Shown: one piece after another, positions 5,918 to 54,533 of the stretch
Numbering within the stretch: the first letter of the stretch is position 1
How the letters are laid out: the number at the start of each line of letters is the position of its first letter
DNA from: Podarcis melisellensis
Taxonomy: Eukaryota
Assembly: GCA_964234715.1 (NCBI GenBank)
Contig: OZ174277.1
Strand: one strand, 5' to 3'
DNA: 63,839 nucleotides
The notes under the pieces: generated by a model
Database searches by the model: none
Told to the model about the DNA's origin: nothing
Seen by the model: only the letters and a program-made list of their open reading frames with translations
Position numbers and translations under genes: made by a program

Positions 5918-7140
5918 ATGTCGAACCAGTCCATGACACTAGCTACATACATTGCCTGAATGTTAGGAAAATATGTACTGGTATGGGTTCATACTGCATT
6001 CAAGAACGTGTGTTTTTTGTTTTTTTTTAAAAAGTGACTCTTTTCTATCATCCACTGGCAGCTATGCTAGCAATTCAGAAAGCCCTTAAGATGGCCTACA
6101 ACAGAGATGGGGAGTTTGTAATCCAGCAACATCTGGAGGGCCACAATTCTCATTATCCCTGATGATGAGTCATGCTTGCTGGAGCTGATGGGAATCTAGG
6201 CTAGATTGGTACCCACATTCTAATGATGGCTAGGCCAAAAGTTAGTACAGCAAAACAAAGAAAAACTTTAAAGCTGCCCCCAAATTTAAAAAAATGTCTG
6301 TACTTCTATTTCCCTGCCACCCCATTCTCACAAACAGACATGCACCATGCATTCTCTCCCTTTCTCTCCCCCCCACGCATGCGTGCATGCAGTCATCCAC
6401 TCACACATCTGCTCTCACATGCCACGTAGGGGCAAAGTATATTTCTAGGCAAACAAGAAAGAAAAATAACAGAGCATGTCACTGTCAGGAGTTCAGAAAT
6501 GGGGGGCAAGTGAGGGTGAGTTCTGTATCTGGGGAGTGCTTGGCCACCTTGCCCCCCCCCCCCGCCCTTCGGTGCCACCCATGGCAGACATACACACAAC
6601 AAGCACTTCTTTCCACTCCAGGGCTAGATAAATTTCTCTGCCTGCTCTTTAAAGATCTTCTCTATAAAGCACACATTTTCTTTACAGAAGCTTTCCAAAC
6701 AAACTGAGAGATCTTTCTCGGCACAAAGCTCCACATCACCACATTGAAAGATAAAGCCCCTGTTTGCCCCTTAAAAGGCAGCAATTGCACCCATCCCCAT
6801 CCCAGCTCAGGAGTGAGGGGTTGTGGGGAAATACTGCCTTTTACTGTCAAGGAGTAGTCAGGGAGCTTATCTTCAATCTAAAGAAAGAGATAAGAGATCA
6901 CTCTGCTAATTCTCAAAGAGAATTTAACTCCAATCTTAGCGCTGTGGAGTTTAGGTCAGATATAAAAGATCCCTTTAAGTGTCCCATGCCTGGTGTTATA
7001 TTACATAGGATACTTAATGGGATCGCTTTTCACATCACATCAGGTGATTGGCAAGAGGTCGTGGCCGGCTGGCTCTAAATGGCACCACAGGCCAAACAGA
7101 GGGGACTGGTCGGCCCAATTATCCAGAGGTTTCCCGTTGT

Positions 7141-7200: not shown

Positions 7201-7725
7201 CCCTGCACATCAAAAGCTAGTACATTACAGAAAATGCTAGCCTAGAATTATTCCAATTGGAGGGTTCCCCCCCCCCGACAAAAGAGCTCAAAATTATATG
7301 GGTCACCATCTGAAGTCTGAGGTGAGGTGTGCATTGGACTGGAGCCTTTAGCTTTTTAATACTTTGTATCTTCACCTGCTAATTTAATGGGTTGTAAGAG
7401 GACATGGCAAACAGGCAGTGACAATTGTAGGTGTATCCAACTGACACGGGATCATGAACGTGCAGGTCCTTTTGGACCTGGAAAAGGACAGAACCAGGGC
7501 AGAACAGGGTGAGGTGCACTTATGCATGCTCTGTTGATGCACGTAGGGGCCAGGGATGGGATAATTAAATATACAAATAAGTATATAATGAAAATAAGCA
7601 CTTGTGTTTTAACTATCCTTATGAAGCTACTTTAAAGGACATGTTTTCCTAGCCCAGCTTATCAAATGATGATGTTCTGATCAAAATCAAAACAAATATT
7701 TGTTCTCATCTTGCATCTCTCTACT

Positions 7726-8413: not shown

Positions 8414-8574
8414 AGGTTTACTGCAACTTCATCAGATTATTTCTTCCTTTTCTAGATGTTCAGGAGACTTCTTCAGAAATACGTTCATCCCACAAAAATG
8501 TCAATGTATATTTTAATTATTTGCGTATTAACTTCTCACACCCCTATCTGCTCCTAAGACTTTTCCGTAGTGAC

Positions 8575-9009
8575 TGTAATGGTTCTAGGGGTTGCTCGTG
8601 AGTAAGCCGGTGCCAACACCTGGCTGGGTTGCCTGAGTGAACCTTTTCTGTCCGGACAGCCACTCACCCATGGCTGTCTCAATCACTGGCAGAATCCATC
8701 AGTGGGCGTTTCTTGAACTTCTTCCAGCAAAGAAGCTCTTTGACGCCTAGTCTCCTCCTACTCTCCTTGCGCGGAAGCCTTCTGCGCAAGGAGGGTGTAG
8801 GCAGCGAAGGACCCTTACTCTCCCCGCTGGTCCCCAGCAAGGAGTCATGGGACCGCCTCGCCGATTCCCCCATCTGCCCCCCTTCTCCACTGGTGCTACG
8901 CTGATTCTCTTCCCCAGTAGATGGGCTGCCTCTCCCCATCCCGGGACGCTCTCTGGAATCCCTCTGAAGCCCGCTCTCTCCCTCCGGCACTGATGGCAGT
9001 TCCCTGACA
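8575..9009 (-). mobile_element. Solo LTR (435 bp), probably Gypsy/chromovirus
   Basis: Minus strand begins TGTCAGG and ends ATTACA. Flanked by a perfect 5-bp TSD GTGAC (8570-8574, 9010-9014). GC-rich against AT-rich flanks. Confidence 0.88.
8679..9008 (-). CDS. LTR-encoded open frame (109 codons, no ATG start), putative integrase C-terminal extension
   Basis: Open from LTR base 2 (GTC AGG GAA CTG = VRELPSVPEGESG...) to the stop at 8681-8679. Ser/Glu/Gly-rich N-part and basic end (PTPSLRRRLPRKESRRRLG...KKFKKRP). Confidence 0.45.
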   Translation of the reverse strand, partial: VRELPSVPEGESGLQRDSRERPGMGRGSPSTGEENQRSTSGEGGQMGESARRSHDSLLGTSGESKGPSLPTPSLRRRLPRKESRRRLGVKELLCWKKFKKRPLMDSASD

Positions 9010-9488
9010 GTGACTTAGAATATAACCTTTGAATTGTAAAGGACCCAGTTTGACTCTCTTCAACTAAGACCCTGTCTCTCATGTCTCCCATTTGTAATAG
9101 GAGAACAATAATATTAAAAGATGTGTTACAAGGATTTCTAATGTAAGGTGAAGTGTCATGAACACTGAAATATTATATAAAAGCTAGGCATTATTATCTA
9201 TCAAAATGTATTGGTTGGATCCAGACTAGAATTGTATTTATAGAATATGTGAGTCTGGAATAGGCAGATCTTGGGTTGCCCAGCTGGCGTAAGTCTTTCA
9301 ACCATGGTGAGTCAAGGCTTTTAAGCTCTCTGCCTTGCTTACCTGGCTGTGTGAGGATCTTGCAAGAGCAAAAAAAACCTGTTCAAAAGAACCTTTTAAG
9401 CTTTCCACTTCTCTGTATTTAATTTGTTCAATTTCAACTGGCTGCCAATCCACAATGAACAGTTGAAATCATGGAAGTTAAATGCACA

Positions 9489-9851
9489 GAAAAAGGTAAC
9501 GGTAAAGGTACCCCTGACCATTAGGTCCAGTCACGAATGACTCTGGGGTTGTGGCGCTCATCTCGCTCTATAGGCCGAAGGAGCCGGCATTTGTCTGCAG
9601 ACAGCTTCCGGGTCATGTGGCCAGCATGATTAAGCCGCTTCTGGCAAACCAGAGCAGCGCACGGAATTGCCGTTTACCTTCCCGCCGGAGTGGTACCTAT
9701 TTATCTACTTGCAGTTTGACACGCTTTCGAACTGCTAGGTTGGCAGGAACAGGGGCCGAGCAACAGGAGCTCACCCAGTCACGGGGATTCGAACCGCCGA
9801 CCCTCTGATTGGCAAGTCCTAGGCTCTGTGGTTTAGACCACAGCACCACCC
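9489..9851 (-). mobile_element. Sauria SINE (Squam1), near full length
   Basis: Minus strand has a tRNA-like head (GGTGGTGCTGTGG...GGTTCGAATCCC) and an (ACCTTT)n-type tail. TSD TAAATGCACA at 9479-9488 and 9852-9861. Confidence 0.93.
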
Positions 9852-12098: not shown

Positions 12099-13631
12099 TA
12101 ATATATTTAATATATTTTCAACTAATTTAAGAGTAGTTTAAGTGATTTACTCGTCAAGTTGCAGAAGTGTAAATGAAATAAGTATAAATAAAACACAGGT
12201 AAAATCAGTAAAACCTCTGAAAAGGAATTATTGATTAACAAAGTTGTGTGTTGACCCATCTAAGTCTGTTTTGGTCACTTCACTACCTTGATTCCTTGCA
12301 ATATGCCACCTCCGTGGGGACGCAGACTGCTGCATTGTGTATCAGTCCCTTTTGCCCTATGGCACTTTAAATCCGGACCTTGCACCTCCAAGTCTGCCAG
12401 ACTTTCATCACAGTTCAATTTCAATTAAGCCACTCACTATTTACAGCAATGTAACGGAAAGTAGATTTTGGCTCATTATCACTATAAATCTGAAGTAATA
12501 TACTAGTGTCTCAAGACATTACTTCATTTTCATAACTAGGAGAAGATTTCATTTCTGTGGATTTGTGTTAAAAGCAATTTGGAAACTTTGCAACAATGAT
12601 ATTACCATAAAACTGAAAGCAATGAAAGTATCATGAGGAGCAGCTATTGCGTAATCTTCATATCTAATTCTTCCATCTTAATTACTGTGGGAATTTAAGT
12701 GTGCTATGTTCTTAAGTACTCTAAAGAATTAGCTCATTTAAGAAGAAAAATATCATTATTTTGAAATAACCTTTTCTCTTTCCGCTCTCCATTTTGTTCT
12801 TAAATTGTAATGTGTCTGTGTGTCAGGGAGGGGGTATATCCAAATCTTTATAATTAGAACCAGAGAACAGGGGCAAGTCTGGGAGTTCACTGTGGCGTAA
12901 ACCAACTATGATTCTTTTCTATTATTAGGACATGGGTAAAAAGCTAGTTCCTTGGGTTATTGCAAATGCAGCTTAAAAAATGAGTGGCCAGCATAGCATC
13001 GGAGGAGCAAATTGCAACACAATTCTATGCATTACTCAGAAGTAAGTCATGTTTAGTTCAATGTAGAGTGTACCCAAGTGACACAAGATTTCAACCATCT
13101 ACAATACCTACAATCAGGACTGGTCCTACCCATTAGGCAGAGTGAGGCAGCTGCCTTTGGCAGCGGATTGTAGAGGTTAGAGAAGTGGTGAGATGTTGGG
13201 AGGACAGAGCTGCAGAGTTGACCACAATCCCCGGCCTGAAGCCTCAAAGATTAGCCTGCTACCACCAGTCTTGGAGTAAAATTCAGCTACCCATCTAGAC
13301 AGCTTCTGTACGTGCCCTTTCCTGGGTTCACCCTGTGTGATGGCCTGGGATTCCGAGTCTGAGAGCGATCCGGAGGAACCCCAGCCGGCACAGGAGTCCC
13401 CGCCTCCAGGGCCGGCTGAACTGGGGCAAGGCCTAGTTGCTGAGGAAACTCAAGAGCAGGCACCAGGTGAAATCATTCAGGCCCCAGAGGTGCTGGAAGA
13501 CTCAGTGGCTACAGGTGAGCCTCCTCCAGGACCCAGTAACCCTTCGGCCTCTCCTGATCTGCAGAGGCTTAGGGCAGAGAGGCGAAGGGAACTGGTGTCT
13601 CCCAGGAGGAGTGCTCGCCTTAAGGCCAAGA

Positions 13632-13717
13632 GAGGCGGGGCTTCTGGGGGCCGGGACCGCCCCCGGCCTTAGAAGAAGATAAAGGTCAGGCAGCCCGGTC
13701 TCAGGTTGCGGGAGCAA
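13632..13717 (+). promoter_or_regulatory. Putative LTR core promoter and transcript 5' end
   Basis: GC boxes (GAGGCGGGG, CCGCCCC) and a TATA-like GATAAAG at 13678. About 30 nt downstream lies GCGGGAGCAA (13708-13717), which is complementary to the PBS. The TSS position is inferred. Confidence 0.6.
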
Positions 13718-13780
13718 CGTCGTTGTGAAGTATCTGCTTTACCCAGTCCTTGTTTGGCACTCTCAGTGTGCCTATTCCTC

Positions 13781-13951
13781 GCCTGGATTCCTGCTTCTGC
13801 CTTACCAGTGTTCCTGCTTCCCCGCCTGGATTCCTGCTTCTGCCTTACCAGTGTTCCTGCTTCCCCGCCTGGATTCCTGCTTCTGCCTTACCAGTGTTCC
13901 TGCTTCCCCACCTGGACTCCTGCTTCTGCCCTACCTCCGTTCCTGCTGACC
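13781..13951 (+). repeat. 43-bp tandem array in 5' LTR (3 perfect + 1 degenerate unit)
   Basis: Unit GCCTGGATTCCTGCTTCTGCCTTACCAGTGTTCCTGCTTCCCC at 13781, 13824 and 13867, with a degenerate copy from 13910. Confidence 0.97.
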
Positions 13952-14017
13952 TGCCCGGCTCCCTGTTGATCTTGGCCTACGGTAATAATACCTCATCCCC
14001 CCTGGGACCAGCACAGT

Positions 14018-14027
14018 TTGCTCCCGC
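14018..14027 (+). promoter_or_regulatory. Primer-binding site of self-priming (Tf1) type
   Basis: TTGCTCCCGC starts after a 2-nt spacer following the 5' LTR and lacks the TGG expected for tRNA-CCA pairing. It is the exact reverse complement of LTR 13708-13717. Confidence 0.75.
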
Positions 14028-14078
14028 CTCACCCGCACTCCCTCTTTGTTGGGGTGCGTTCGGGAAGATTCAGAGGCC

Positions 14079-17000
14079 ATGGCTGACCAAGCGGCTACAT
14101 TGTTGGCAATAGCCCAGGAGAACCAGGCCTTGACGCACACCGTGCAGCAGCTCAGTAACGTGGTTGCGGCACTACAGCAGCGTTTGGACGCCCTACCGGC
14201 TCCTGGGGCCGACGCCCCGGCTTCTGGCAAGTACCCAGTGGCCTTGCCTGAGAAGTTTGATGGGGCTCCGGCCAGCTTTCCCATGTTCCTTGCCCAGGCC
14301 AAGCTGTATATTCAGGGGCGCGCCCGGAACTTCCCCGACGACCGCACCAAGGTGCATTTTTTGATTAGTTTGTTAAAGGACCAGGCGGCCAAGTGGGCGT
14401 TGCCGCTGCTCAGGCAAGACTCCCCCTTGCTGGCAGACTACGGGGGGTTTTGCAATCTGTTGGAGGCCGCGTTCGGCAACCCTTTGAAGGGGAGTCAAGC
14501 CAACCGGGCGATTCGGCGGTTGAGACAGGGCAAGTCCAAGGTGGCCGCATACACCACAGAATTCCGGCTGCTGGCACAGGACTTGACCTGGAACGACTCT
14601 GCTCTTCGGGACCAGTATCTCGAGGGGCTTTCAGATGAGATACTGGACCAGCTGGCCACAATGGAACGCCCCACCACGCTAGACGCTCTTATTCAGCGGA
14701 GTCTACAGATAGACGATCGGCTAGAGGACCGGCGTCAGGCTCGGGGCCGCCGGCACCTCCAGTTCTCGGCCCCGGGGTCCACCAGCAGCCCCACAGGCCC
14801 AGCTGAGTCATTGGAGGAACCCATGCAGCTTGGGGCAGTGCGGCCACGCCTCTCCCCCGCAGAGAAGTCGCGGCGTCGGGAGGGGAATCTATGTCTCTAT
14901 TGTGGCGGAAGCGGACACTATGCACGATCCTGTCCTGAGAAACCGCCAACCCCAGTAGCTGATGGCCCTGGCTCCCTGGGGTCCCAAACAGCACAGAATG
15001 GGACCGCACCAATCGAATTACAACACCTTATGGTTCCGGTACATCTATACCCTCCAGGAGGGCCATGGATTCTTACCCATGCCCTGGTGGATTCAGGGGC
15101 AACCCGCTCTTATATGGACGCTGCTTTTGCTGCCCAGCATCGGGTGCCACTTCGGAACAAGCCAGAACCGGTACAGGTGGAGGCAATCGACGGACGGCCA
15201 CTGCGTTCGGGCGCCGTCACTCGAGAGACCCAGCCCCTGGTCCTGTGCCTCCAGCAGCACCGTGAGATGCGAACTCTGGATATTGCCTCCATGCCCCGGT
15301 TCCCCCTGGTGCTTGGGATGGACTGGCTAGAGGATCACAATGTGCAGATTGATTGGGTCAAACGGACTGTACACTTCCCAGACCCCAGTTCGTCTGCTGA
15401 GACTGAGATGCTAGCAGCTGTGCCCACTGAGGAGGCTGCTGCAACGCTCCCCGCGGAGTACCGGGACTATCACGACGTGTTCGAGGAACGGGGGGCAGAC
15501 CAGCTGCCGCCGCATCGGTCCTTTGACTGCGGCATAGACCTCCAGCCCGGAGCGCCTCTACCGGTGAGTCGCTTATACTCGTTAACAGAGCCAGAGCGCG
15601 AGGCTTTGCAGGACTTCTTGCGCAAGAACCTGGAGCGAGGGTTCATTAGACCTTCTACCTCGCCCACTGCTGCGCCAGTGCTCTTTGTTAAAAAGAAATG
15701 TGGGGAGCTCCGCCTTTGCCATGATTACCGGGCCCTGAACAAGATTACCATCCCGGACCGGTACCCCTTGCCCCTTATTTCGGAGTTACTGGAGCGGGTG
15801 CAAGGGGCGCAGGTGTTCACCAAGCTAGACCTCCGGGCAGCCTACAATTTGATTCGGATCCGCGCCGGGGATGAGTGGAAGACAGCATTCGGGACCCGGT
15901 ACGGACAGTTTGAATACCTGGTTATGCCCTTTGGTTTGTGCAACGCGCCTGCTGTGTTTCAACGGTACATCAACCACGTATTTCAGGACTTGCTAGACAA
16001 GTACGTGGTGGTGTACTTGGATGACATTCTGGTTTACTCTCGTGACCCGGCGTGCCACGAGGGCCATGTCCGGACCGTGCTGCAGCGCTTGCGCGAGCAT
16101 CGTCTGTATGCAAAGCTCAGCAAGTGCGAGTTCCATCAGCAGTCAGTGGACTTCCTGGGTCATCGACTCTCACCAGGTGGGGTGCAGATGGATCCTGGGA
16201 AGGTGGCAGCGGTTCGAGAATGGGCGGCACCTCGGAACCGCAAGGACCTACAGCGTTTCCTGGGGTTCGCCAACTATTACCGGACCTTCATTGCGGATTA
16301 TGCTCACCGCACCACCCCGTTGACCCGGCTTCTGCGCCCCAAGACGCCGTTTTCCTGGGACAAGGAGGCGGAGGAGGCATTTCAAGGGTTGAAGGCCTGT
16401 TTCCAGAGAGCGCCAATCTTGCAGCATCCGGATCCTTCTCGACCCTTTGTGGTAGAGACTGACGCCTCCAGTACGGCTCTCGGTGCCGTCTTGTCTCAGC
16501 AGCACGAACCGGAAGCGCCACTCTTACCCTGCGCCTTCTATTCCCGCCAGCTCCTTCCAGCGGAGCGTAACTATACCGTGTGGGAGCGGGAACTGCTGGC
16601 CATCAAGGTGGCCTTTGAGGTTTGGCGCCACCATCTTGAAGGAGCAAGACACCCGGTGGAGGTGAGAACCGACCACCGGAACCTGGAATACCTCCAGACC
16701 ACCCGCAAGCTGAACCAAAGGCAGATCCGGTGGGCGTTGTTCTTTTCCCGGTTCCAGTTCCGGATCCGCTACATCCCTAGCTCCCAAAACCAGAAGGCGG
16801 ATGCCCTGTCCCGGAAACCTGAAGACAACGCAGACACGGTTCAGCAAGCAGCACCCACCACGATCCTACCACCAGCTGCATTCCTGGCCACCCAGGAGGT
16901 TGAGCCACTGCAGGCTCGGGTGCGGGAACAGCAACGGGTCGACGCTTGGGCCCAGGAACGACTCCGGGAACTGGCCGAAGGATCATGCCCTCAGTATCCA

Positions 17001-18716
17001 GGGCTGGTTTCGCATCAGGGTCTTCTGCTGCACCACGGGCGCCTGTACATCCCACCAGGGCCGCTGCGGGCTGAGGTTCTCCGGATGTCCCATGACGCTC
17101 CAGCGGCGGGGCACTTTGGGCGGTATCGGACCACCCATCTGGTAAGCCGTGAGTTTTGGTGGCCCCGCTTGAAGGCTGACGTGGCTCGCTACGTCGCTGG
17201 TTGTGACGTCTGCAGGCGGGCCAAGGGGCCTACCGGGCGACCCCCCGGCCTTCTTCAGCCGTTGCCGGTTCCACCACGTCCTTGGCACACAGTTTCTCTA
17301 GACTTTGTAGTGGAGTTACCCCCGTCTCGTGGCTGCACCTGCCTTCTAGTTTTCTCCGACCACTTCACGAAGATGGTGCACTGTGCCCCCTGCCCATCCA
17401 TACCCTCAGCTAAGGAAACCGCGCAGCTGTACCTTCAGCATGTCTTCCGCCTGCATGGCCTACCTGAGCGTGTAGTATCCGACCGCGGCGTTCAGTTCAC
17501 GTCCCGGTTTTGGCGTGCTTTGCACCAGGCCCTCGGAACAGAGGTCTGTCTCTCATCTGCTTACCACCCACAGACTGATGGCCAGACAGAACGGGCGAAC
17601 GCGGTACTGGAACAGTACCTCCGGTGTTACTGCAGCTACCAGCAGGACGACTGGGTCGACCACCTAGCATTGGCGGAGTTCGCTTATAACAACGCGGTGA
17701 ATGCGTCCACCCAGCAGACCCCGTTCCAAGCCAGTTATGGCCTTCACCCACGGTTGTTTCCGGATGTGCTGCCGGCATCTGCGGTCCCTGCGGTGACAGA
17801 GTGGCTTCAGGAGCTCCAGTCCCAGCAACAGCTGTTGATGGAGCAGCTGCGCCAGGCCAAGGAGGCGTACAAGGTCCAGGCCGACCGCCACCGCCAGGTG
17901 GGGCCGGAACTTCACGTTGGTGACTTGGTATGGCTTTCCACTCGCCACCTCCACCCTTCTCGACCTTCGCGGAAGCTGGACGCCCGGTTCACCGGCCCGT
18001 TCCCTATTGTGGACCAGGTCTCGCCTGTGGCATTCCATCTCCAGTTGCCAGCAAACCTGAAGGTTCACCCGGTATTCCACAGGTCCCTTCTGAGTCCGGT
18101 GGCCCCACCCGACGAGTTCCACCCAGACCGTCCCCGACCGCAGCCAGTTTTGGTGCAGGGAGAGCCAGAGTACGAGGTGGAACGCATTCTGGACTCCCGA
18201 TACCGCAGGGGAAGGCTGCAGTATCTCATTGACTGGAAGGGGTATGGGCCAGAGGACCGCTCCTGGGAACCAGCGGTCAACGTCCACGCACCTGCCTGCA
18301 TCCGGGAGTTTCATGCAGCGTACCCCAGCAAGCCGGGTCCGGGCCCTCAAGTGAGGGGGGGGCCTGGGAGGGGGGATGGTGTGATGGCCTGGGATTCCGA
18401 GTCTGAGAGCGATCCGGAGGAACTCCAGCCGGCACAGGAGTCCCCGCCTCCAGGGCCGGCTGAACTGGGGCAAGGCCTAGTTGCTGAGGAAACTCAAGAG
18501 CAGGCACCAGGTGAAATCATTCAGGCCCCAGAGGTGCTGGAAGACTCAGTGGCTACAGGTGAGCCTCCTCCAGGACCCAGTAACCCTTCGGCCTCTCCTG
18601 ATCTGCAGAGGCTTAGGGCAGAGAGGCGAAGGGAACTGGTGTCTCCCAGGAGGAGTGCTCGCCTTAAGGCCAAGAGAGGCGGGGCTTCTGGGGGCCGGGA
18701 CCGCCCCCGGCCTTAG
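14079..18716 (+). CDS. Gag-Pol polyprotein, single ORF, 1545 aa from the first ATG (Gag/CCHC, protease, RT, RNase H, integrase, chromodomain, LTR-encoded tail)
   Basis: ATG in strong Kozak context gccATGg. Motifs in order: PEKFDG Gag, [14 protein letters not shown] knuckle, LVDSGAT (~15090), YLDD (16014-16025), ETDAS RNase H, H..H..CDVC plus D-D-E integrase, [24 protein letters not shown] chromodomain (~18168-18320). No internal stop. Confidence 0.97.
18366..18376 (+). promoter_or_regulatory. Polypurine tract (PPT)
   Basis: GGGAGGGGGGA ends 3 nt before the TG start of the 3' LTR at 18380. Confidence 0.88.
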
Positions 18717-19102
18717 AAGAAGATAAAGGTCAGGCAGCCCGGTCTCAGGTTGCGGGAGCAACGTCGTTGTGAAGTATCTGCTTTACCCAGTCCTTGCTTG
18801 GCACTCCCAGTGTGCCTATTCCTCGCCTGGATTCCTGCTTCTGCCTTACCAGTGTTCCTGCTTCCCCGCCTGGATTCCTGCTTCTGCCTTACCAGTGTTC
18901 CTGCTTCCCCGCCTGGATTCCTGCTTCTGCCTTACCAGTGTTCCTGCTTCCCCGCCTGGATTCCTGCTTCTGCCTTACCAGTGTTCCTGCTTCCCCACCT
19001 GGACTCCTGCTTCTGCCCTACCTCCGTTCCTGCTGACCTGCCCGGCTCCCTGTTGATCTTGGCCTACGGTAATAATACCTCATCCCCCCTGGGACCAGCA
19101 CA
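18380..19102 (+). repeat. 3' LTR (723 bp)
   Basis: Direct repeat of 13336-14015 with one extra 43-bp unit, followed by TSD CCCTG. Confidence 0.98.
18825..19038 (+). repeat. 43-bp tandem array in 3' LTR (4 perfect + 1 degenerate unit)
   Basis: Units start at 18825, 18868, 18911 and 18954, with a degenerate copy from 18997. Confidence 0.97.
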
Positions 19103-22205: not shown

Positions 22206-22531
22206 GGGACACAGGTGGCGCTGTGGGTTAAACCACAGAGCCTAGGACTTGCCGATCAGAAGGTCGGAGGTTCGAATCCCCGCGACGGGGTGAGCTCCCG
22301 TTGCTCGGTCCCTGCTCCTGCCAACCTAGCACTTCAAAAGCACGTCAAAGTGCAAGTAGATAAATAGGTACCACTCCGGCGGGAAGGTAAACGGCGTTTG
22401 CCAGAAGCGGCTTAGTCATGCTGGCCACATGACCTGGAAGCTCCCTCGGCCAATAAAGCGAGATAAGTGCCGCAACCCCAGAGTCGGTCACGACTGGACC
22501 TAATGGTCAGGGGTCCTTTTACCTTTACCTT
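22206..22531 (+). mobile_element. Sauria SINE (Squam1), full length with internal deletions
   Basis: GGGACACAGGTGGCGCTGTGGGTTAAACC head, B-box GGTTCGAATCCC, (ACCTTT)n tail. TSD TACACATCCAGA at 22193-22204 and 22532-22543. Confidence 0.95.
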
Positions 22532-22819
22532 TACACATCCAGAGCCAGGTGCACCAACTCTAGGGGGCCTCTCTCAATATTTCCTGGAAGAGGGCTGGGC
22601 CCTTGGTGCACATCACGCATGTGGGACATCACACACACAACGTGTTGTGTGTCACAACTTCAGTGGCCGGCTCCTTCAGAGCACTCAGCCTCCTCCAGAT
22701 GATGAGCCATCACACGCATAGCGTGCACCGAGCCCTCTCACTCTTTGGAGCAACCTGACGCCAATTTATGACTTTCACATTCAGGCAGCAGCTCCCCAAA
22801 CTGAACTCCGTAACAACAC

Positions 22820-52468: not shown

Positions 52469-52662
52469 GAAAGGTAAAGGACCCCTGGACAGTCAAGTCC
52501 AGCCAAAGGCGACTATGGGGTTGCAGCGCTCATCTCTGCTTTCAGGCCGAGGGAGCCAACGTTTGTCCACAGACAGCTTTCCAGGTCATGCGGCCAGCAT
52601 GACTAAACCGCTTCTGGCACAACAGAAAACCATAACAGAAACCAGAGCACACGGAAACGCCA
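52469..52662 (-). mobile_element. Sauria SINE 3' half (different subfamily)
   Basis: aaaggtaaaggacccctggac...ggggttgcagcgctcatctc...ggtcatg.ggccagcatgactaa, homologous to 9493-9670. Confidence 0.88.
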
Positions 52663-53537: not shown

Positions 53538-54533
53538 CTGAAGAAACCCTCCCTAGATTCAGATAATTTAAGTAACTACCGGTCAGTTGCCAATCTCCCT
53601 TTCTTGGACAAGGTTCTTGAGCAGGTGGTTGTGGACAAGATCCAGACTCTCTAATTTGTCTCAGTTGGAGTTTAGGCCAGGTTTCAGCACAGAATATGTG
53701 CTGTATGATGACCCTGTATGATGACCTCTGTCGGGAGAAAGACAGGGGAAATGTGCCCCGTTAATTCTCCTCAACCTCTCAGCGGCTTTCAATACCATCA
53801 ACCATGGTATCCTTCTGGAGCAGCTGTCCAAGTTAGGGGTGGATGGCACAGCTTTGCAATGGTTCCAGTCCTACTTGGATAGTTGTTTCCAGAAGGTGAT
53901 GCTGAGGGAGTGCTCTTCAGCCCCATGGAACCTTCCATGTGGGGTTTCCCAGGGAACAATGTTATCCCCTATGCTGTTTAACATCTACATAAAACCACTG
54001 AGTGGGGTTATCGGGAGGTTTGGAGTACGTTGTCAGCAATATGCTGATGACACACAGCTCTACTCCTTTACCTGGGCAGGTGTAGCAATGGCTATGCTGG
54101 ACCATTGCTTTGCCTCACTAATGCACAGGATGAGAGCCAACAAACTGAAACTCAAGCCAGATAAGACGGAGGCACTGTTAGTAGGTGATTCCCTAGACCA
54201 GATGGATGGAAGGTAGCCTTGTTCTTGATGGGGGTTACTCTCCCTCTGAAGGAGTGGGTATGCGGATTGGGGCTACTTCTGGATCTTTTGCTGTCTCTTG
54301 AGGTTGAGGTGGCCTTCATTAACTATATTTAGGTGCCATATGAAAAAGTTTCTTTAGAATTAGGTTTTTAGCTGACTAACACATGTGATGGCTTTTTAAA
54401 TATGCTTGTGGGAAGGGAGTTATTGGTTTCTTTTTGTTTTAGTACGAATTTTGTGTTCTCATTTTGTATTTTTATGTTGTGAACTGCCCTGCAATCTTTG
54501 GATGAAGGGTGCTATACAAATTTTATAAATAAA
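53538..54533 (+). mobile_element. L2-clade LINE, decayed RT fragment plus 3' end
   Basis: LKKPSLD..NYRSVANLPFL, LSAAFNTINHGILL, ALQWFQSYL, GVSQGTMLSPMLFNIY, QYADDTQLY, LKLKPDKTE, with multiple disruptions. L2-type tail ending aataaataaa. Confidence 0.9.

Follow-up and report, generated by a model that had tools for sequence, protein, structure and literature searches.

Self-priming lizard chromoviruses read pol into the U3 of their 3′ LTR: an ordinary solo LTR and a candidate integrase tail with FxGF motifs

The extension of pol into the 3′ LTR, with a targeting motif encoded by the LTR, is already known from plant CRM elements and Bingo: in the CRM group A with its CR motif, and in Bingo and Beetle of Beta vulgaris, pol enters the 3′ LTR, and a targeting function has been proposed for the portion encoded there (PMC3059260, PMC3605345). 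Self-priming is likewise an established trait of chromoviruses, as Tf1, Tj1 and sushi are described with a primer-binding site complementary to an 11-mer of their own LTR, together with a chromodomain, TG..CA ends and a 5-bp target duplication (PMC4600332). In the case of retroviruses, lentiviral integrase reaches chromatin via the host reader LEDGF/p75 (PMC9987994, PMC8149907), and MLV integrase uses a flexible C-terminal tail that binds BET proteins (PMC8149907). The host partners of LEDGF carry a TND-interacting motif (TIM), which is described as an obligate hydrophobic alpha-helix, an acidic S/T-rich linker of 8-16 residues and the sequence FxGF; FxGF is reported to be indispensable in every known partner of LEDGF and HRP2 and to matter especially for these two proteins (PMC9987994).

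The window analysed here, a 63,839-nt stretch of the Podarcis melisellensis genome, contains a solo LTR of a chromovirus family that we call B and a full-length element of a second family, A (Table 1), and these lizard elements share the pol read-through of the plant elements and the self-priming, chromodomain, TG..CA ends and 5-bp duplication of the Tf1 group. The solo LTR itself is ordinary. A genome search with its DNA gave 2287 first-look candidates, and all 40 that were scored were 94-100% identical. Solo LTRs are spread across all chromosomes. Many of the elements with internal sequence and of the near-identical amplified copies sit on contig C19 (38.8 Mb), a pattern that a W chromosome could produce. 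Elsewhere in the window, we noted RT relics (PF00078) that are probably LINE fragments (1104-1976 and 53725-54213) and SINE-like repeats (about 9492-9850, 22214-22532 and 52470-52626).

Table 1. Features of the solo LTR (family B) and of the full-length element (family A), in window coordinates
Feature	Position	Strand	Basis
Solo LTR, chromovirus family B, 435 bp, TG..CA ends	8575..9009	-	ends, duplication, genome matches
Target-site duplication GTGAC, left	8570..8574	.	flank comparison
Target-site duplication GTGAC, right	9010..9014	.	flank comparison
109-codon relic, C-terminal half of pol/integrase tail	8682..9008	-	continuous with IN-chromodomain in parents
Stop codon ending the 109-codon relic	8679-8681	-	ORF reading
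Basic stretch and LLCW motif, conserved end of U3-coded tail	8700..8786	-	alignment
11-nt self-primer site at LTR position 307, mismatched at one base in the solo copy; putative U3-R border and transcript start	8693..8703	-	pairing in parents
U5 arm containing GAGCAAC, pairs with internal +21 in full elements	8591..8600	-	pairing
Full-length chromovirus, family A, target duplication CCCTG	13336..19102	+	LTR pair, ORF
Family A single gag-pol ORF, 1575 codons, with chromodomain	13989-18716	+	ORF reading
111 codons of family A pol within 3′ LTR, from base 2	18381..18713	+	ORF versus LTR border
RRSARL, six-residue match to HMGN nucleosome-binding core RRSARLSA	18648..18665	+	sequence match, putative
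Self-primer site of family A, overlapping GAGCAAC and about 30 nt past a TATA-like word	13708..13717	+	10-bp pairing with internal +3

A sequence-only reading had drawn attention to this LTR because its minus strand is open from base 2 for 109 codons, just as the family A element is open from base 2 of its 3′ LTR for 111 codons, and had observed that the solo LTR lacks the exact RRSARL motif; all three statements are correct, and the HMGN RRSAR core is absent from the rest of family B as well. The open frame of a single LTR is weak evidence, because in 5000 dinucleotide shuffles of the solo LTR the base-2 frame stayed open in 2.8% and at least one of the six frames in 21%. In a sample of 30 copies taken by DNA search, 24 have no stop in the base-2 frame, compared with 0-1 for each of the other five frames, so that the family does hold this frame better than the others; these frames were inherited from a common source element and are therefore not 30 independent tests. 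Less remains of the proposed kinship between the two U3 regions. The phase from base 2 is indeed the same, but the peptides cannot be aligned (BLASTP E 3.4), and we rejected the idea of one module; neither peptide found a match in Pfam. The near-equal ORF length is not a rule or a constraint, as relatives have 71-109, 111-117 or 209 codons in the LTR. The words AAAGGT, CAGGCA and CAGGT do follow the stop in both LTRs, but the ordered set is lost, as judged by eye, in the sister sub-lineages L035, L037, L040 and L065, and GAGCAAC overlaps the self-primer in family A and lies in a U5 arm in family B, so that we no longer regard these words as one homologous signal.

Evidence for read-through came from the parent elements. 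Three of the 30 fetched copies of the solo-LTR family adjoin internal sequence, and in one of them (L032) the frame runs through integrase, chromodomain, an acidic tail and the polypurine tract (PPT) and enters the LTR in precisely the phase that was predicted; another (L031) is out of phase. The identity of the family B parent, with gag, PR, RT, RH, IN and chromodomain in this order, was established by Pfam on the L035 ORFs and by tblastn of L031 and L032. In-phase read-through was found in 14 of the 22 nearest parents, a set of 20 elements hand-picked from the top of a ranked list (one per near-identical amplified set, with some earlier-fetched elements skipped) plus L031 and L032; in the other 8, a G-rich stretch ahead of the PPT differs in length. 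Across the B clade, the 3′ LTR could be resolved in 28 elements, of which 25 continue in phase, and an intact LTR contributes 71-109 codons; the 28 were drawn from 43 sequences, with 12 that have no usable LTR pair, L069 with its mis-called pair, element A and L049 standing outside the count. A separate frameshift upstream of the chromodomain is present in 5 of these 25. Lineage C reads 209 codons into its LTR in the same phase in all three resolvable elements (four fetched). The continuity of the parental pol with the LTR frame, which the earlier reading had named as the check, is thus borne out. Among 81 near-identical matches of family A, the full 1575-codon frame is present in 43, and in 13 a change in G-run length stops the frame at the LTR or shortly after its border. 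Variants of G homopolymers shift the frame before the chromodomain in young family B copies (L039-L044, L072 and L073, at about 6195-6210) and before the U3 tail in family A copies (L081-L100, before the PPT); they could yield integrase with and without the tail or represent assembly error, slippage and assembly error being indistinguishable here. As a further difference between the families, gag and pol are overlapping ORFs in different frames in B and C (L035: 1997-3046 and 2707-6972), whereas A has a single ORF.

The long tails are a property of a squamate clade. In an integrase tree built from 71 rows by a quick method, with SH-aLRT as its sole support measure and without most of P0061-P0120 and the rows of short coverage, A, B, C, an Anolis protein, a Gekko protein and one further protein are united at an SH-aLRT of 100, and B is joined with C at 99. 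The Anolis protein of this clade has a tail of 16 residues and is either an exception or a broken copy. In the public gene models P0004, P0031, P0078 and P0113, Gypsy pol is joined to host genes (V2R, transglutaminase, LRR, GPCR), most likely through errors of annotation. In outgroup homologues, the median tail behind the chromodomain measures 21 residues, and 83 of the 97 tails are no longer than 70, compared with 120-400 residues in these lizard elements; an unrelated chromovirus family of the same genome (L049, L050) continues for 10 codons from base 2. A G[GD]xV word like that of the junction is found in 22 of the 97 outgroup tails, so that the base-2 phase may predate the long tails. Since the A and B peptides cannot be aligned and their end motifs differ, the tails represent a shared architecture rather than one homologous module. 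The tail of lineage C (L077, L078 and L080 in the 3′ LTR; P0008 and P0270) is about 370 residues long; its FxGF is followed by a Trp-rich block, and its end, RRKRWSKARVLNWC, echoes the basic-LLCW end of family B.

The part of the tail that is conserved best was invisible to the sequence-only reading, because it lies outside the LTR. Between the chromodomain and the PPT, family B encodes two tandem blocks in which a W/F..F pattern is followed by 8-9 acidic or S/T residues and FxGF; the linker between the invariant F and FxGF is thus acidic and S/T-rich and falls inside the published range of 8-16 residues. Motif 2 is invariant in 13 of 13 rows, the first position of motif 1 is F or M (M in two sub-lineages), and position -2 is often G, which departs from the published S/E-x-F-x-G-F. 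Amino acid identity across eight sub-lineages is 0.64 and 0.58 in the two FxGF blocks, 0.62 in the chromodomain and 0.38 in the spacer, at a pS of 0.77-0.87, and codons within the motifs vary synonymously. The motifs are kept in P. muralis (P0001-3, P0243, P0256) and in the distant P0245. Two FxGF arise by chance in 0.2% of residue shuffles of the tail, a figure to be read with the resemblance of the blocks to one duplicated unit. An acidic-FxGF filter, defined after the motifs had been seen, passes 21 of 24 family B motifs, 0 of 4 in lineage C and 0 of 113 FxGF in 103 outgroup pols. When it was applied to 220 kb of host DNA, 3 of 59 motifs passed, all on the coding strand and upstream of two PF10497 genes, which we take to be CDCA7L (JPO2) and CDCA7. 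An acidic-FxGF motif is thus found at the second of these genes as well (L129, minus strand, near 7430). Lineage C has the form STF[H/Q]GF, similar to the DPF3a IBM peptide as printed in PMC7337902.

A profile of 22 motif segments did not retrieve the LEDGF-TIM fusions present in the PDB at E values up to 10, its best match being a Numb peptide (E 0.23) that we take as chance; the whole tail gave no match in the PDB, and an Atlas search gave none either (best 0.80). In an AlphaFold2 model, the chromodomain is predicted to be folded and the tail disordered (146 of 262 residues with pLDDT <50), with one three-residue turn as the only structure after the chromodomain; in the free chain neither motif is modelled as a helix at a low-confidence pLDDT of about 50, and the W/F..F spacing is present. 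The host encodes LEDGF-family exons, and a complex prediction of the lacertid LEDGF IBD (P0148, 361-450) with motif 2, made without alignments or folded controls, scored 0.01 and counts neither for nor against binding. We consider it somewhat more likely than not that the FxGF motifs, as candidate TIMs, really bind TND proteins.

The chromodomain next to these motifs is degenerate. Family B has a PF00385 chromodomain upstream of the PPT in which the first and third aromatics of the methyl-lysine cage (as defined in PMC3605345) are missing, and in lineage C all three are missing, including the central Trp. In family A the cage is intact, and the first and third aromatics are also retained in 63 of the 70 outgroup proteins that could be parsed. 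Cage loss and FxGF gain count as a single evolutionary event; in P0020 the cage has been lost without FxGF.

On balance, we lean towards a model in which the solo LTR derives from a self-priming lizard chromovirus whose pol reads through the PPT and all of U3, yielding an integrase with a disordered tail of about 200 residues that would act as a chromatin tether in place of the degenerate chromodomain. The tail would remain on the integrase after protease cleavage, the FxGF motifs of B and C would function as TIMs that bind the IBD of LEDGF/p75 or HRP2, readers of H3K36me2/3, and CK2 sites in the acidic linker might tune this binding. The U3-coded basic-LLCW end could add nuclear import or a nucleosome or DNA contact. 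In family A, with its intact cage, the HMGN-like RRSARL end would be used instead; RRSARL is retained in P. muralis (P0017), occurs only in A among the families compared, and resembles the HMGN nucleosome-binding motif RRSAR (PMC12487698). A role of the tail in steering insertion sites is likely, because its two motifs match those by which host proteins grip LEDGF. That LEDGF or HRP2 in particular guides the targeting of B and C is a more tentative proposal, and the same caution applies to the wider idea that squamate chromoviruses exchanged an H3K9me-reading chromodomain for mimicry of host motifs, with the JPO2/DPF3a-like FxGF of B and C addressing LEDGF/HRP2 and the HMGN-like end of A the nucleosome acidic patch.

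It may also be that the tail is selected for binding a host factor and has nothing to do with target choice, in that FxGF recruits another TND protein or aids transcription or nuclear import, with the basic U3 end being just an NLS. As TIMs bind several TND proteins (PMC9987994) and the host has 8 Med26/TND matches, such partners would be at hand; the IWS1 motif was not found in 14 stretches beside 7 of the 8 matches. We regard this as unlikely, since FxGF is especially important for LEDGF and HRP2 (PMC9987994) and since the motifs are located where chromoviruses carry their targeting domain, beside a cage-less chromodomain.

Between sub-lineages, the frame is under purifying selection: the median dN/dS is 0.23 in the pol frame and 0.13 in its last 45 codons, compared with 0.40-1.61 in the other frames (nine natural copies in a protein-guided alignment, the 0.40 belonging to an antisense frame that is taken to share third positions). 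In a gap-free check, changes in the last 45 codons showed a third-position excess in 9 of 10 pairs, which are not independent of one another; five close pairs compared across the entire ORF showed none. Constraint is weak to nearly absent over the initial two thirds of the U3 peptide (pN/pS 0.78). At the conserved end, C and W are present in at least 90% of the aligned rows, and the L, C and K/R codons of the LLCW end vary synonymously. The U3 ORFs of the B sub-lineages have 96, 100, 101, 102 and 109 codons, so that net length changes preserve the frame. One may still argue that the U3 half is tolerated read-through, purine-rich DNA being poor in stops and the conserved end reflecting promoter and self-primer overlap, so that only the pre-LTR half matters as protein. 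The shuffles open in some frame, the relaxed N-terminal part of the U3 peptide and the many out-of-phase copies (8 of 22 parents, 13 of 81 young A copies) fit this, as does the position of the LLCW codons 20-35 nt upstream of the inferred start, with the last codons overlapping the self-primer. The frame-preserving lengths, the concentration of changes at third positions, the synonymous variation and the persistence of LLCWKRR at the end of the distant P0245 speak against it and make it quite improbable. We hold it very probable that the read-through of pol into U3 is a selected trait. The earlier claim of a selected, lineage-wide module thus survives for the frame, mainly in its last 45 codons, and for the long tails shared by A, B and C, and does not survive for homology of the module.

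This selection acts on the transposing lineage and not on inserted LTRs, because the private changes of the 30 copies (17 synonymous, 57 non-synonymous and 3 stops) fit neutrality (P 0.52). The anatomy of the LTR agrees with this. In the parents, the self-primer site pairs perfectly over 11 bp with internal +3 and covaries across lineages, and the start of the internal region pairs perfectly with an LTR segment over 10-11 bp in 13 of 15 elements, with both sides covarying; L065 and L067 are not among the matches listed. The family A LTRs contain a 43-bp tandem repeat downstream of the inferred start (13764-13947 with 4.3 copies and 18807-19034 with 5.3 copies), and the LTR pair differs by one repeat unit. 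As the start inferred at LTR position 307, 22 nt before the ORF stop, lies downstream of most of the ORF, the promoter of the solo LTR would not transcribe it, and the solo copy would make no protein. Four shallow RNA runs of a related species gave 52-88 family reads per run, on both strands and with flanks near zero, and neither splice joints nor a transcript-start pile-up were found at this depth; a young B element gave 102-169 reads per run, patchy and again without a start pile-up. A loose end at position 8726 recurs in all four runs and was kept out of the evidence. The suggestion that solo LTRs act as exons or mini-genes that already encode a basic peptide, for which the 24 stop-free copies and the family reads in RNA might be cited, is thus extremely improbable and was rejected, as was exaptation of this copy as an LTR exon: the copies decay neutrally, the ORF lies upstream of the inferred start, the shallow reads from a related species cover both strands without joints, and among the 87 ORFs of the window no host coding domain was found besides the RT relics and two sub-cutoff matches.

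With the tether model, the elements gain a wider meaning. To our knowledge, the insertion-site choice of vertebrate Gypsy elements is largely untested, and the lizard tails provide short, named motifs together with a named host partner, which makes the question accessible to peptide binding and insertion-site maps. If the model is true, tethering by LEDGF/HRP2 arose twice among retroelements, by different chemistry, as HIV integrase binds LEDGF by its folded core and not by a linear FxGF motif. Mimicry of TND motifs would then extend to autonomous transposons, and the HIV tether would have been recruited a second time, independently, by an endogenous vertebrate retrotransposon. The case also shows U3 of a vertebrate element doing double duty as promoter and as coding sequence under selection. 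A search of mainly open literature turned up no description of these lizard tails or of a retrotransposon integrase with FxGF or TIM motifs; the described JIL-1 case concerns FxGF in a host protein (PMC6877644).

In comparison with the known systems, read-through into the LTR is what the lizard elements have in common with the plants, and the candidate tandem acidic-linker FxGF motifs just upstream of the LTR, recognized in the tail of the parents, are new. In CRM group A the CR motif replaces the chromodomain, whereas the lizard elements keep the chromodomain and add to it an acidic half with FxGF, encoded ahead of the PPT, and a basic half encoded in U3 (PMC3059260, PMC3605345), so that family B is not a member of this group and only works alike; CRM group A lives in plants and the lizard elements in a vertebrate. 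The chromodomain of family B resembles the group II chromodomains, in which the first and third cage aromatics are missing and which, in the 2013 account, were found only in plants (PMC3605345); lizard lineage C also has no central Trp. The proposed use of the tail is that of MLV integrase, and the proposed route of B and C to chromatin via a host reader is that of the lentiviruses. The motifs themselves are closest to the TIM/IBM of JPO2 (CDCA7L), IWS1, MLL1, PogZ, DPF3a and JIL-1, with which family B shares the hydrophobic anchor, the D/E/S/T linker of 8-9 residues, FxGF, disorder and tandem arrangement (PMC9987994, PMC7337902, PMC6877644, PMC8534522). Unlike these JPO2-type TIMs, the family B motifs, known here from sequence and modelled with low confidence without a helix in the free chain, reside on the integrase of an autonomous retrotransposon.
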